Sequence record: MK327941.1
Direction: 5' to 3' (one strand)
Origin: Escherichia phage vB_EcoM_G37-3
DNA: 64,000 bases
Shown here: positions 35,957-41,493 of the stretch, piece after piece
Layout of the letters: the number at the start of each line of letters is the position of its first letter
Position numbering within the stretch: position 1 is the stretch's first letter
Notes under the pieces: generated by a model
The model's database searches: none
Told to the model about the DNA's origin: nothing
What the model saw: the letters and a program-made list of their open reading frames with translations, nothing else
Made by a program: the position numbers and the translations under genes

Positions 35957-37177
35957 TTATACTGCCATTTGAGCGGTGATCGCTGGATGGCTTTGATAGT
36001 TGTGAATTTTAAAATCTTTCGGAGTCTTTGTCAATACCTCATCTAAAGATTTAAATTCCGGCAACTCAATTGTTGGTTTATCAAACGGAACACGGCTTAA
36101 CTGTTCCATAACTTGATCAAAATGGTTTTTGTAAATGTGAGTATCTCCACCAGAGAAAATCAGTTCTCCTACCTCAAGATCACACATTTTCGCTATGATG
36201 TGAGTTAACAGCGCATAGCTGGCGACGTTAAAGGGCAAGCCCAAAAAGCAGTCTACGCTTCGCTGAAACCACATACAAGACAGTTTACCTTCATTGACGT
36301 AGAATTGTACGAACGGATGACATACACCCAATACAGCATTATGTGTTCCTTGTACGTTCCATGAGTCAATGATGATACGTCGATCCGTTGGATTGTTTTT
36401 AATTTGTTCAATCACGTTTTGTAACTGGTCTTCCCAAATCTTCGGGCGATAGACATATTCTTCATCGTCTTTAGTGCTTGATGTGTCTACGTCCATACTA
36501 ACAAACATCGTGGTATCCGGTGCTATAATATCCCCACCCAGATAATCACTATCAAGCAGATAACCGAAATAACCATCATCTACCCATTCCTGGAATCCCC
36601 ACAAGCAATATGCATCATTAACAAAATTAGATTGAGTCTTCCAGTGGTCTGCTACCAGAATATAATCAAACTCTTCATAACGCATACCACGCCAGATAGC
36701 ACATAAACGGTCTTCTGTGTCATTGGTTGGCGTAAAGTCTTCTACCCACGGGTGCTTAAATGTATGTGTATATTTGCTCTTAACGCGCTTAATTTTGATT
36801 TCACCATGTGGATGAATCGGTTTGCGTCGCCACGCCATACCATACATATTGCCGACATTATAACCATTGAATCGCAAGGGATTCTTTTCTTTCATATCAA
36901 GACAGTTGCCGCGCCAAATATCAAAGGCTTCCTCGTCAAACTTGCCGCGTGTAATTTCCTGTAAGCGACGGCGGTCAAGTGATCCATCCATAAACCATAG
37001 CAATTCGCCAATTACAGAGGCTGTAGCCATCTTTTTAGTGGTCAGTAATGGGAAACCCTTGCTTAAATCAATTCGCATCTCTGCGCCGAATTTAGAGAGC
37101 GTACCTACCCCCGTGCGGTCTTCACGAGGACAGCCATTATCAAGAACATCACGCAATAGTTTCAAATATTCTTTCAT
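35957..37177 (-). CDS. td: thymidylate synthase with about 120-aa internal insertion
   Basis: 406 aa; DRTGVGT, DRRIIIDSWN, CHPFVQFYV, FLGLPFNVASYALL; insertion between WRRK and DQLQNV. Confidence 0.85.
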   Translation of the reverse strand: MKEYLKLLRDVLDNGCPREDRTGVGTLSKFGAEMRIDLSKGFPLLTTKKMATASVIGELLWFMDGSLDRRRLQEITRGKFDEEAFDIWRGNCLDMKEKNPLRFNGYNVGNMYGMAWRRKPIHPHGEIKIKRVKSKYTHTFKHPWVEDFTPTNDTEDRLCAIWRGMRYEEFDYILVADHWKTQSNFVNDAYCLWGFQEWVDDGYFGYLLDSDYLGGDIIAPDTTMFVSMDVDTSSTKDDEEYVYRPKIWEDQLQNVIEQIKNNPTDRRIIIDSWNVQGTHNAVLGVCHPFVQFYVNEGKLSCMWFQRSVDCFLGLPFNVASYALLTHIIAKMCDLEVGELIFSGGDTHIYKNHFDQVMEQLSRVPFDKPTIELPEFKSLDEVLTKTPKDFKIHNYQSHPAITAQMAV

Positions 37178-37511: not shown

Positions 37512-38093
37512 TTACGCCTTCTTACGTTCTAAAATTTGTTCGCTGATCAGGTAATCATCAAGGAAGTAATTATGTTCTTCTTTTGTTGCAAAGTCAAAAT
37601 ATAATTCCTGAATCATTTCCTTAGAGATGCCAACATCATATTCAAACGGATCATTAATTCCTGGTCGTTGAACATACGTTAACACAATACGGTCCGCAAA
37701 GTCAACTGCTTTTTCAATCAGGGAAGGTCCGCCAATAACGCTTACCAAACCTTGCAATTTCTCTATGACTTCTAATAATTCCTTCAATCCACCATCATTA
37801 GTAATCGCGGTATACACATCTGGTTGGTCGCCGTTTTTTGCTTTCGGTGCTGGCTTACTGGTATCGGTGCTAACAACCACATTCACACGACCTTCCAGTG
37901 CTTTAGGGAGACTTTCAAAGGTATTACGTCCCATTACAACCGCCGCAAGATCAACATCTCCCATAGTGCGCATTTTAAAGTTTTCCATGTCCTTTTTGAT
38001 TGGACGTCCCCACGGTAAACCGCCTTTAAAACCAAAAGCCCAATTTTCATCTGACATTTTAGTATCACCAATCGCAAATACACATTGAATCAT
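37512..38093 (-). CDS. frd: dihydrofolate reductase
   Basis: 193 aa; GGLPWG, MGRNTFESLP motifs. Confidence 0.85.
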   Translation of the reverse strand: MIQCVFAIGDTKMSDENWAFGFKGGLPWGRPIKKDMENFKMRTMGDVDLAAVVMGRNTFESLPKALEGRVNVVVSTDTSKPAPKAKNGDQPDVYTAITNDGGLKELLEVIEKLQGLVSVIGGPSLIEKAVDFADRIVLTYVQRPGINDPFEYDVGISKEMIQELYFDFATKEEHNYFLDDYLISEQILERKKA

Positions 38094-38108
38094 AATATAA
38101 ATCTCCCA

Positions 38109-38471
38109 TCAAATCAGTTTGAAATAGTTTTCGTTTACATTTTCTTCTGTGATTGCTGTCTTAAATTCTTGACCGTTATCCGGTGTGATGAAATAACGGT
38201 CAGAATAATCACGAAAACGTTTTAAGTGAGATACCCCAACATTAACACCATTTTCCCAAAAACGAAAGGTAATCATTTTTGGTTCATATCGATAGTCGCT
38301 GGTTAACACAGTACCATCACCGCGACGGGCTTCATAAACCGTAATACATTCACGATTAGCGGCTTTAAGGCATTCTTCAATAGTGCCGCATGAGATAATA
38401 CTTACTTTTTCATCTACGATTTGTTCTACAGTCCACATAATATAATCCTCTCTTTGTTTCGATATGTGCAT
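38109..38471 (-). CDS. hypothetical protein (120 aa)
   Basis: ORF with promoter cassette at 38461..38488. Confidence 0.6.
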   Translation of the reverse strand: MHISKQREDYIMWTVEQIVDEKVSIISCGTIEECLKAANRECITVYEARRGDGTVLTSDYRYEPKMITFRFWENGVNVGVSHLKRFRDYSDRYFITPDNGQEFKTAITEENVNENYFKLI

Positions 38472-38488
38472 TATACACTATTGCGTTA
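38461..38488 (-). promoter_or_regulatory. early promoter cassette
   Basis: TTGACA, 16-nt spacer, TATAAT. Confidence 0.5.
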
Positions 38489-39709
38489 CGCTGTCAACTC
38501 TTTTTCAAAAGATTTTACGATATACATGATGGTGCTCAATTCGGACGGCGCTACTGTCTCTGTGTAGCCATCCGGCATATCTTCTTTCGAGATATAGGAA
38601 GTTTTACCTTTCATTGCTTCCTTGATTTTGTTCTCTAATTCTAAGATCTTTTGACCGTCTTGTAAAGTCAATTCATAAAAGATCTCATGATCGAACTTTG
38701 AAACACGAGATTGGTTTCTCATGCGCTCATGTGTTTCTTTGTTTGTTATTCCAAATTTCACGCCAACAAAGGAATCATTGTTGGTTAATTTCTGTATATA
38801 AAGAGTTCCTGTCTTTAATGCCTGATAACCATGCTTAGAACACAACGGGCAGCGTGTTCCGCGATTAACAAAATTATCAATAGTTACATCCCATTCATGG
38901 TTACGTTCGCATGTCAGAAGTATTCTTGTTAATGCACCTTTCCACTTTCCTGAAATCCCAATAAATTTTAGTCTGTTGGTTTCGCATATTTTTTTAATTT
39001 GTTTTAATCGGTCACTTTTTGTTATTGGTGCTGTTCCGCTACATTTGCGACACCGACGACCTAGTTTGAACTTATCATAACTTTGTTCGTAAATGTGATT
39101 ATTAGGACACTCAAATTTAAGTTTAGTTTTTGTTCCTCTCCATTCCCCAATTATACCCAAAAATTTATAATCTCCTTTATTTTCATTTATATAAGATAAG
39201 GAATCTTCTTTATCATGCATCTTGCCCCCGTTACATAAAGGACATCTTGTTTTTTGATGAATGAAATCTGTATATGTTGGTTGGTATGTGTGTCCGTTTG
39301 TACAGTTCATAATGAGTCTTGTTCTGCTATTTTTATACTCCCCACCAACAAAACCAACAAATACATCGTTTGTTTCTTGTTTTATTCTTTCTATCACATT
39401 GTTTGGGTTTAATCTTTGAGAATCAACCACACATTTCTTACACGAAACTTTTTTCCTGATATTTGCTAGAGTTGATGTGTATTCATGCTTGTTATTACAT
39501 AATATAAGAGCTTTTGTTTTGAGACCAGACCATTCTCCAACAAACCCCATGAAAGAATAACCAACTTCCAAACATGAATTTTTTACAACATTTTCCCAAT
39601 AGAAGGGAGTTTTCGTGTTTCCTTTTATTTCTATACGAATCTCGTGTGCTTGACGTACCAACATATTTTTATCCTCCGTTGTTTCGATGATTGTATTATA
39701 CATTACCAC
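38486..39709 (-). CDS. protein with four tandem Cys-containing repeats and C-terminal GIY-YIG / T5orf172-like domain (407 aa)
   Basis: four roughly 45-aa repeats (FxGxxGEWxGxKTK...CxNxHxY, CPLC / CRKC) then LYIQKL...VKFGITNK...DGYTETV. Confidence 0.55.
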   Translation of the reverse strand: MVMYNTIIETTEDKNMLVRQAHEIRIEIKGNTKTPFYWENVVKNSCLEVGYSFMGFVGEWSGLKTKALILCNNKHEYTSTLANIRKKVSCKKCVVDSQRLNPNNVIERIKQETNDVFVGFVGGEYKNSRTRLIMNCTNGHTYQPTYTDFIHQKTRCPLCNGGKMHDKEDSLSYINENKGDYKFLGIIGEWRGTKTKLKFECPNNHIYEQSYDKFKLGRRCRKCSGTAPITKSDRLKQIKKICETNRLKFIGISGKWKGALTRILLTCERNHEWDVTIDNFVNRGTRCPLCSKHGYQALKTGTLYIQKLTNNDSFVGVKFGITNKETHERMRNQSRVSKFDHEIFYELTLQDGQKILELENKIKEAMKGKTSYISKEDMPDGYTETVAPSELSTIMYIVKSFEKELTA

Positions 39710-39723
39710 ATCAGCATGTCAAT
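39695..39723 (-). promoter_or_regulatory. early promoter cassette
   Basis: TTGACA, 17-nt spacer, TATAAT. Confidence 0.5.
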
Positions 39724-39752
39724 ACATTTTCATAAAATTTTAGGCAATAAAA

Positions 39753-39775
39753 AAGCCTTCCCGAAGGAAGGCTTT
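39753..39775. terminator. bidirectional rho-independent terminator after gene 32
   Basis: AAGCCTTCC-CGAA-GGAAGGCTT flanked by A run and T run. Confidence 0.6.
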
Positions 39776-39783
39776 AAAATTCA

Positions 39784-40758
39784 TTACATCCCTAACAGAG
39801 CGTCAAGATCATCCAGATCAGAAGCGGAGGAAGTACCGCCACCCAGGTCCAGAGATGCCATCAGATCATCAGCGGAAGAATCTAACGCCGTGCTAGCTGC
39901 GTTAATACCAACTACAGTGCTAACCGCGTTAATACCAGCATCGAATGCATTCATCTGTGCGTCAAAATCGTCAAGCTGGCTGTTAATCGCTGCCGCAGCA
40001 CTGGAAGCCGCAGCACCAGCTACCATAGACACACCCATAGTTTTCTTAAATTTGGTTTCCAGTTCATCGAACGGTTTAAACTGGCTAGGCGCTACAATCT
40101 CACTCAGGTCAACCATGTTTTCCATCAGATATTTCTGATATGCTTCGTCTTCAATTTTCGGAAGCTGTGATTGCTGCATGAAACGAGAATCATCATAGTT
40201 CTGGTGTTTATCAACCTTCTTAGCTTTCAGGAGGAAGTTAGCACCGGAGAACACACAAGTTACATCTACCGGAACTTCGCCCATATCGGTATTCACGTTC
40301 ACCATTGCAACGATCTTATCATAAATTTTCTGACCGAAGCGGAATTTGAATACCTTACCTTCATTTTCTGGTGCTTGAGGATCTTTCAGTACCAGAATAT
40401 TTGCGTAGTAAGAGGCTTTACGCTTAATCAGTTGCCATTCGGTTTTATCGGTATTGTACAGGTCTTTTTCGTTAATATATTTGCACACAGGGCAAGAATC
40501 AAAATCACCGTGGGTGCTTGAGCAGTTTTCCCAATACCATTTACCATTAACTTTGAAGGAATGGTTTACCAGTTTCACAATCGGCAGACCGTCTTCTGTC
40601 TTAGACGGCAGGAAGCGAATCAGGGCTTCACCGTTACCTGCTGCATCAGTCTTAATCTTCCACTCTTTCGGATCTTCTTTGGAGAAACCGTTGCCACCTT
40701 TCAGTGCGGCCAGTTGAGCTTGCAGTTTGGAAGAATCTTGGCGTTTAAACATATTCAC
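39784..40758 (-). CDS. 32: single-stranded DNA-binding protein gp32
   Basis: 324 aa; [19 protein letters not shown] zinc site, acidic C-terminus. Confidence 0.9.
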
Positions 40759-40788
40759 TATTCCTTCTTTTGATTAATTTACTAGACT

Positions 40789-40816
40789 ATTATACAGATT
40801 TAAATTTACTTGTCAA
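40789..40816 (-). promoter_or_regulatory. sigma70-type promoter upstream of gene 32
   Basis: TTGACA, 16-nt spacer, TATAAT about 35 nt upstream of ATG. Confidence 0.5.
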
Positions 40817-41493
40817 CTATTTGTTTCGGCTTTTAATTGAGATATTTCTTTACACTCTTTAACTACTTTAACAAATAATGCTCTTGCTTTTGCGGCGTCA
40901 ATAACAAGTAGTTTCTTGTACGCCTTCATTTTAACACTATAAGTTTGCCAAATCAAGTCTTTGGCTACCTTGTCGTGTTCGTCGATTATATTTAGAAAGC
41001 TATCTAACAACATAAACGACTCAAACGATATAATCCGATTTTGCAGTAGTTTAAAGATACCGCTAGTTTCGGTTGCGGGATTGTATGTAATTAGCTCTTT
41101 AAGAGTAACCCCGCGTTTCTCTGAGAAGTATACCAGACTTTTAATGTCATCGTCAAATCGTGTTGCTGCATCGGTTATCTTTCCTATGTATTCCATATAA
41201 AAGCCGTATGCGTCAACATCAGTGATTTCACCTACCCATGCATCGGTATTAGCTACCAGATTGCTTAGGAATAGGAAGTATAATTCTCTTAGATTGTACT
41301 TTTCCGCTAATTTTGCGAAATAATACTTATCTCTGCGTTTATTGAATGCGGCATCAGACAACCGCATCCTCCAATTGTATTTTACGCAATCATAACGCCC
41401 GTTCATGTGAGCTTTCATCATGCAATATAACATATACACAGATTTAGCATTAATTCGCATATCTGGATCTGGAGGAAGACGGTTTCTGATCAT
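40813..41493 (-). CDS. 59: helicase loader gp59
   Basis: 226 aa; aligns with T4 gp59 (YKLYLMIK..HMNGKYD, ISFESF.LLDSFLNIID). Confidence 0.85.
   Translation of the reverse strand: MIRNRLPPDPDMRINAKSVYMLYCMMKAHMNGRYDCVKYNWRMRLSDAAFNKRRDKYYFAKLAEKYNLRELYFLFLSNLVANTDAWVGEITDVDAYGFYMEYIGKITDAATRFDDDIKSLVYFSEKRGVTLKELITYNPATETSGIFKLLQNRIISFESFMLLDSFLNIIDEHDKVAKDLIWQTYSVKMKAYKKLLVIDAAKARALFVKVVKECKEISQLKAETNS

Follow-up and report, generated by a model that had tools for sequence, protein, structure and literature searches.

A CapR-type zinc-finger array joined to a T5orf172-like nuclease domain in an optional gene beside gene 32 of a Krischvirus

The present analysis concerns a 64,000-nucleotide stretch of the genome of Escherichia phage vB_EcoM_G37-3 (record MK327941.1; the whole stretch is hereafter called the window) and, within it, a gene between gene 32 and frd that encodes four zinc-finger modules followed by a nuclease-like domain. 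The phage is a Krischvirus, that is, an RB49-like coliphage of the T4 type, and its region 38000–40200 is 99.0% identical to that of AV108 and 98.9% identical to that of GEC-3S. All genes of the region lie on the minus strand, in the order gene 59, gene 32, the nuclease gene, an open reading frame (ORF) of 109 aa, frd, an ORF of 89 aa, and td (Table 1). An original prediction, drawn from the letters of the DNA and a list of its ORFs, had placed the gene between frd and gene 32, which is right, with the 109-aa ORF intervening on the frd side; the ORF that it named, 38486–39709, is likewise present, on what had to be corrected to the minus strand.

That ORF is the maximal one and would give 407 aa from a GTG codon, a reading that we reject because the GTG (39709) sits inside the gene's own promoter (39722..39695). 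Translation almost certainly begins at the ATG at 39664, which follows a GGAGGA Shine-Dalgarno (SD) motif and corrects the predicted product from 407 to 392 aa; GEC-3S carries a counterpart of this same length in RefSeq under the product name 'endonuclease', and the protein matches PHROG 681, also 'endonuclease', at E 6.5e-101. The promoter cassette of its own with which the gene had been credited is there as well, in the form of a sigma-70 promoter agreeing with the consensus at 12 of 12 positions and preceded by the terminator hairpin of gene 32. Promoters of this kind (12/12, with 16-nt spacers) stand before three successive genes on the minus strand, namely gene 32 (40789–40816), the nuclease gene and the 109-aa ORF, and the -35 hexamer of the last falls within the final nuclease codons (ELTA and the stop); promoter-like sites in the whole region are no more numerous than in shuffles. 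The nuclease gene has a guanine-plus-cytosine (GC) content of 34.7%, compared with 40.1 +/- 2.2% for windows of the same size, which puts it in the lowest 0.5%, and its finger array reaches 33.9% (25.4% at third codon positions). No paralogue of the protein was found in the whole window by tblastn.

Table 1. Features of the nuclease gene and its surroundings, with positions in the window (SD, Shine-Dalgarno; RBS, ribosome-binding site; PeSL, promoter-early stem-loop)
Feature	Position	Strand	Basis or remark
Nuclease coding sequence, 392 aa	38486..39664	-	ORF list, SD and ATG, GEC-3S RefSeq; stop codon 38486-38488
N-terminal leader, residues 1-23 (MLVRQAHEI...)	39596..39664	-	Partly conserved among alleles; consensus MLVRxAHEIEW in 43 homologues
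Zinc-finger repeat 1, residues 24-88	39401..39595	-	Putative ligands C56, H60, C75, C78
Zinc-finger repeat 2, residues 89-153	39206..39400	-	Putative ligands C121, H125, C141, C144
Zinc-finger repeat 3, residues 154-219	39008..39205	-	Putative ligands C186, H190, C205, C208
Zinc-finger repeat 4, residues 220-281	38822..39007	-	Putative ligands C252, H256, C272, C275
C-terminal GIY-YIG-like (T5orf172/MUG113-type) nuclease domain, residues 282-392	38489..38821	-	
SD motif GGAGGA of nuclease gene	39672..39677	-	7 nt upstream of ATG 39664; read from sequence
Sigma-70 promoter of nuclease gene	39695..39722	-	TTGACA-16-TATAAT, 12/12; annotated promoter in GEC-3S
Gene 32 terminator hairpin, 10-bp stem then T run	39752..39775	-	Just upstream of nuclease promoter; annotated terminator in GEC-3S
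Second sigma-70 promoter, for downstream 109-aa ORF	38470..38497	-	12/12, 16-nt spacer
Upstream promoter/RBS direct repeat, PeSL-like	39661..39742	-	72-83% identity to downstream copy in related loci
Downstream promoter/RBS direct repeat	38435..38517	-	
Variable segment (swappable cassette)	38506..39660	.	Pairwise blastn against four related loci
Gene 59	40813-41493	-	
Gene 32	39784-40752/8	-	Pfam gp32, E 1e-51
109-aa ORF downstream of nuclease gene	38109-38438	-	
frd	37512-38093	-	
td (thymidylate synthase)	35957-37177	-	406 aa

Between its leader and its C-terminal domain the protein is built from four repeats, which are supported by shuffle statistics, motif positions, the stretches matched by the Pfam CapR profile and an AlphaFold2 (AF2) model. 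When the units were anchored on their four Cys-x3-His motifs and scored by BLOSUM62 local alignment against 500 shuffles, unit-unit scores were 81–110, as opposed to 22–24 +/- 4–5 for the shuffles (z = 12.8–21.3; 0/500 shuffles as high), and comparisons of the units with the C-terminal domain gave z of at most 1.1. The four repeats that had been predicted therefore stand, but not their spacing of roughly 45 aa, which corresponds to the conserved core; the period is about 65 aa. In every one of the four units a C-x3-H motif is followed after 14–15 residues by C-x2-C, so that the ligand set per unit is C-H-C-C rather than C-C-C-C, and the cysteines of this motif are invariant or nearly so in 43 homologues. 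A zinc-ribbon-like character had been proposed for the repeats, and a zinc-finger nature of the treble-clef type is borne out by Pfam: the CapR homology domain (PF21817) matches in four stretches (E 6.6e-29; 100.3 bits, gathering score 24.2), best in repeat 4, where residues 221–276 align to positions 4–67 of the 67-position profile, and DUF4379 (PF14311, 'probable treble clef zinc finger') matches at E 2e-11 (44.3 bits, gathering score 24.5). Each module would accordingly be expected to bind zinc.

In the full-length AF2 model each unit folds as a helix followed by three strands and a short helix, with a knuckle; the high mean confidence (predicted local distance difference test, pLDDT, 90.1) combined with a low predicted template-modelling score (pTM, 0.37) points to well-folded beads whose mutual arrangement is not fixed. 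Tandem Repeats Finder detected no tandem repeat at the DNA level, the repeats being visible in the protein only, and this absence of signal in the DNA implies that the duplication of the fingers is old. The array is also matched by PHROG 559, 'HNH endonuclease' (window 38960–39544, residues 41–235; E 7.7e-35), which indicates that the same finger modules have been joined to a different class of nuclease in other phages.

The remainder of the protein is a single C-terminal domain, and the LYIQKL...KFGITN...DGYTET segment in which the original prediction had recognized it is real and conserved. When 1.84 billion cluster representatives were searched by phmmer with a 118-aa piece from the C-terminus, 507 proteins were returned; among the 150 of them that were listed, the match is C-terminal in nearly all, and the proteins are 200–600 aa long. 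Domain scans of 128 relatives found CapR in 82, DUF4379 in 62, MUG113 in 51, DUF723 in 37 and T5orf172 in 19. In three relatives the gathering score is passed in the exact region that aligns to the C-terminal domain of the window protein: P0139 has T5orf172 at 380–479 (29.6 bits, threshold 20) and aligns at 369–477 (E 3.9e-11); P0069 has both T5orf172 (22.9 bits) and MUG113 (25.5 bits) and aligns at 509–618 (E 3.5e-16); and P0065 has MUG113 (25.9 bits, threshold 22.3) and aligns at 396–509. The resemblance to T5orf172 and GIY-YIG nucleases that had been suggested thus holds by transitive homology and not by direct match, and three independent lines (predicted structure, transitive sequence homology and residue conservation) place residues 282–392 in the T5orf172/MUG113/GIY-YIG group.

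The predicted structure agrees with this placement. The C-terminal domain has the three-stranded sheet flanked by helices of the GIY-YIG fold, and in a comparison of this domain with known proteins the scores listed were 5.9 for Mhr1/mL67, 5.0 for the UPF0213 GIY-YIG protein EF2693 and 4.4 for the GIY-YIG restriction enzyme PD-T4-3, with AtGRXS16-N (4.0), I-TevI (3.6) and Eco29kI (3.3) lower. Foldseek against predicted viral structures gave 102 matches at E<=1e-3 with template-modelling (TM) scores of 0.7–0.9, the names among which include CapR homology domain-containing protein, homing endonuclease, GIY-YIG domain-containing protein and T5 Orf172. Across 129 sequences of 20–39% identity, Y289, K303, G305, R314, E344, G366, E369 and T370 are invariant, and no other part of the protein is as well conserved as this domain (76–97% identity among 16 cluster representatives of the gene family). 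By their order and spacing, the invariant residues probably correspond to the GIY tyrosine, the 'YIG' strand (here KFGIT), the catalytic arginine and the catalytic glutamate, in which case Y289, R314 and E369 would be the equivalents of I-TevI Y6, R27 and E75.

The presence or absence of the gene at this locus was followed in 58 Krischvirus records matching the flanks, with classes assigned from match spans and representatives of each class checked. The slot is empty in 6, holds an unrelated 109-aa ORF in 24 and carries a nuclease allele in 28. JSE represents the empty state, in which an ORF239-like 109-aa gene directly follows gene 32; the unrelated 109-aa ORF is of the G5211 type (L003 1995–2324) and has no Pfam match. 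Among the nuclease alleles, the window type (392 aa, four fingers) accounts for seven records; Makalu_001, counted within the 28, carries the 392-aa gene together with the 109-aa ORF (L008 1995–2324) in tandem, each with its own promoter repeat. Sixteen records share the common nuclease domain with other arrays (checked in RB49, 485 aa, a six-finger allele; Phi1, 460 aa; and JEP8, 541 aa), four have the MIZ4-type allele (182 aa, one finger), and one, Whisky, has an allele of 486 aa. The number of fingers ranges from about one to six.

On the upstream side of the exchangeable segment, homology to all other alleles resumes at 39660–39667, that is, at the start codon; on the far side it resumes at 38505 with G5211, at 38590 with MIZ4 and at 38800 with RB49. 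The RB49 breakpoint is the exact junction of finger array and nuclease domain, consistent with a conserved nuclease domain behind diverged arrays: relative to RB49, Phi1 and JEP8, the nuclease domain is 82–85% identical and the arrays only 33–41%. The best unit-unit matches between alleles are not collinear, window unit 4 matching, for example, the second of the four units of P0005 and the first of the three units of P0008, which suggests that finger modules have been reshuffled between alleles, the unit scores being moderate.

The slot is bounded by two direct repeats of a motif of about 80 nt that comprises an AT-rich tract, TTGACA-16-TATAAT, 'ATCGAAACAA', an SD motif and ATG. The empty site of JSE has a single hybrid repeat, the 5' half of which resembles the upstream copy and the 3' half the downstream copy. 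An optional ORF is thus framed by two copies of an AT-rich tract, sigma-70 promoter, SD motif and start codon, as in the promoter-early stem-loop (PeSL) cassettes of RB49-like phages, where a repeated promoter/SD/start motif surrounds an optional ORF and one copy stays at the empty site (Arbiol et al., 2010, PMC2839356; Comeau et al., 2014, PMC4122927). The present locus differs from these cassettes in lying in the replication-gene block and not in a hyperplastic region, and in having a hairpin, the gene 32 terminator, at the upstream copy only; no stem-loop was found at the second copy.

We regard the gene as a free-standing homing endonuclease gene (HEG) whose product is a site-specific endonuclease composed of a CapR zinc-finger array and a T5orf172 (GIY-YIG superfamily) nuclease domain, a reading to which we assign a probability of about 65%. 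The possibility of a homing endonuclease had been raised by the original prediction, and the facts fit it: this is an optional intergenic gene between conserved genes, present, absent or replaced in close relatives; its GC content is low; and relatives occur at other loci, a 36% homologue (P0035) having a methyltransferase gene and gp9 as its neighbours in another T4-like phage and a 27% homologue (P0041) lying between an AAA ATPase gene and RNase H in a different phage. Nuclease activity in this domain family has a precedent in the T5orf172 domain of ICP1 Odn, which cuts DNA and is dead as an E180A mutant (PMC8263062).

Under this reading, the gene would be transcribed early from its own consensus sigma-70 promoter, a feature visible in the sequence, and translated into a beads-on-a-string protein in which, by fold and family match, four independently folding C-H-C-C modules of about 65 aa precede one nuclease domain. 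Each module would bind one zinc ion, the four together would read an extended DNA site, and the C-terminal domain would cut nearby with the conserved Tyr289/Arg314/Glu369 set. In a mixed infection, the break in a genome lacking the allele may then be repaired from a genome carrying it, with the gene being copied in; homologous recombination between the two flanking promoter/RBS repeats could also insert, delete or replace the gene.

Several results weigh against this reading, some of them touching the nuclease assignment and others homing. The protein has no direct match at E<=1 to Pfam T5orf172 (PF10544), MUG113 (PF13455) or GIY-YIG; NCBIfam and PADLOC searches of it gave nothing; a Foldseek search of the PDB with the C-terminal model returned nothing significant, with Slx1 appearing only at E>1; and hhalign found no match between the 129-sequence profile and the catalytic domain of I-TevI (sequence verified against 1MK0/1LN0). 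A profile of 43 homologues compared with PDB sequences likewise gave nothing meaningful. As to mobility, metagenomic Krischvirus homologues of 41–51% identity are all at the same locus, and homologues down to 41% at one locus look more like an allelic series than like free transposition. No convincing target-site difference was seen between the intergenic DNA of filled and empty loci. The nuclease-free 109-aa ORF is found in this slot too, between the same repeats, which means that the polymorphism needs no nuclease. Identity does drop beside the gene, which is 98–99% identical to that of Skers while the 900 nt just downstream are 81–89% identical, and relative to Makalu_001 the adjoining end of gene 32 falls to 86%; low-identity patches also occur elsewhere in the region, however, and these drops are therefore weak evidence for homing.

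The competing account that survives best has the gene carried along passively in a PeSL-type promoter cassette, moved by recombination between the repeats, with a nuclease whose function is a different one, for example to cut competing phages or parasitic elements in the manner of ICP1 Odn, and with an arms race diversifying its fingers. The two copies of the 12/12 promoter and RBS repeat around the gene, the hybrid repeat at the JSE empty site, the 109-aa ORF in the same slot and the tandem cassettes of Makalu_001 are all what such an account predicts, and PeSL-mediated shuffling has been shown in RB49 and phi1 (PMC2839356). It would also accommodate alleles that, at a fixed locus, keep the nuclease domain while their arrays diverge, vary in finger number and match out of register, and Odn demonstrates that a T5orf172 nuclease can serve defence (PMC8263062). 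Against this, no target, satellite or competitor was identified, PADLOC gave no match, and the downstream repeat lacks a stem-loop; moreover, the account is compatible with homing, as the seg and mob genes of T4 likewise cause marker exclusion. On balance we consider it unlikely, though deserving of serious attention.

That the protein is a domesticated DNA-binding regulator whose nuclease domain no longer cuts, by analogy with the CapR of the Vibrio cholerae satellite PLE or with autorepressing I-TevI, appears improbable. CapR itself represses by binding a -35 element (PMC8096241), the 3' end of the nuclease gene overlaps the -35 of the next promoter, and the failure of direct Pfam nuclease searches would be in keeping with a lost activity; yet CapR has no nuclease domain, which here is the best-conserved part of the protein, and its Tyr, Arg and Glu positions are invariant over the 129 diverse relatives. 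The notion that the repeats and the C-terminal likeness are a chance or compositional effect in a fortuitous ORF is already refuted by repeat z values of 13–21, the CapR E value, confident structure models, 55 homologues at E<=1e-5 and the 507 found for the C-terminal domain.

Several known systems come close to the window gene. Putative T5orf172 HEGs with repeated, exchangeable zinc-finger domains have been described at the boundaries of genetic exchange, and tandem CapR, DUF723 and DUF4379 fingers are known on such genes, for example ICP1 gp174 and gp165, while T4 itself is without T5orf172 genes (Barth et al., 2023, PMC10448857). Like the ICP1 genes, the window gene combines an N-terminal CapR-type finger array with a C-terminal T5orf172-type nuclease, is free-standing and beside essential replication genes, varies in repeat number by allele and marks a boundary of sequence exchange. 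Unlike them, it resides in a T4-like Krischvirus, has C-x3-H instead of CxxC as its first zinc knuckle, carries a nuclease domain too divergent for a direct Pfam T5orf172 match, and exists as many alleles in one fixed slot bounded by promoter repeats. The PLE CapR protein shares the Pfam domain PF21817, a zinc-finger DNA-binding module; it needs its cysteines for DNA binding, binds sequence-specifically in electrophoretic mobility shift assays and has the zinc-ligand pairs CxxC ... CxC (Netter et al., 2021, PMC8096241). It is, however, a single-domain repressor without a nuclease, in contrast to the four modules and conserved nuclease domain found here. Odn (ICP1 gp88) also joins a DNA-binding part to a T5orf172-type domain in which the catalytic Arg and Glu are kept, but its DNA-binding part is a RepA_N domain and not CapR fingers, and it serves in defence against satellites (Barth et al., 2021, PMC8263062). 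In I-TevI and the Seg proteins the nuclease is N-terminal, so that the domain order is reversed relative to the window protein, and sequence similarity is undetectable; the DNA-binding part of the T4 GIY-YIG endonucleases comprises a zinc finger, a helix and a helix-turn-helix, as opposed to a four-fold zinc-finger array.

Other observations concern neighbouring genes and further homologues. In some relatives (MIZ4, L004 3949–4545; Skers, L016 8820–9416) gene 32 and gene 59 are separated by an HNH endonuclease gene, which gives gene 32 an optional nuclease slot on either side; the corresponding gap of the window (40759–40812) is without this gene. In T4, the free-standing GIY-YIG endonuclease SegG is located between the same two genes. 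A metagenomic Krischvirus contig (L011 449–1024) has a gene with HNH_3 and AP2 domains, a pair that constitutes the 'IPA-HNH' class of Barth et al., between rnh and a CYTH-like gene; it is absent from the window. Homologues of the nuclease protein filed under bacterial names lie on short or prophage-size contigs (P0024, Bacillus atrophaeus; P0053, Clostridium botulinum), and the 'Bacillus' one, which is 60% identical and sits on a 4.4-kb contig, may be phage contamination. In td, the Pfam ThyA match is split in two, its second part aligning residues 250–406 to profile positions 110–266, and this split implies that some 130 aa have been inserted midway along the enzyme. A long td (406–411 aa) is annotated in six of the six related Krischvirus records in which a td annotation was seen (GEC-3S, RB49, G5211, JSE, Phi1 and Skers), and the part of td at 36200–36499 is a divergence hotspot that is 80% identical to Skers.

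Genes of the CapR-finger/T5orf172 kind have already been published, and several records annotate this one as 'endonuclease' (RefSeq GEC-3S and RB49) or 'GIY-YIG nuclease family protein'; among its kind the gene is unremarkable, though well resolved. Less familiar are the occurrence of such a gene in T4-like coliphages, the C-H-C-C variant of the ligand set, a nuclease domain below the detection limit of Pfam, and a clean allelic series at a slot bounded by promoter repeats. As a more speculative and, in our view, doubtful proposal, the alleles of the slot by gene 32 may form a natural series of modular zinc-finger nucleases, each joining the shared nuclease domain to a reshuffled array of about one to six CapR fingers; an arms race among co-infecting Krischviruses would keep the series diverse, with each allele cutting genomes that carry other states of the locus.

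The analysis extends the CapR-finger/T5orf172 genes, mainly known from the Vibrio phage ICP1, to T4-like coliphages, which are easily crossed and engineered. With its empty, 109-aa-ORF and nuclease-filled states, and with different numbers of fingers on a common nuclease domain, the slot amounts to a compact natural experiment. This set of alleles could be used to ask whether T5orf172 genes home, how finger number sets the length of the target, and how nuclease-driven homing and PeSL recombination cooperate in the reshuffling of phage genomes. If it is true that every finger of about 65 aa recognizes a constant number of base pairs, the allelic series could reveal a recognition code for engineering.

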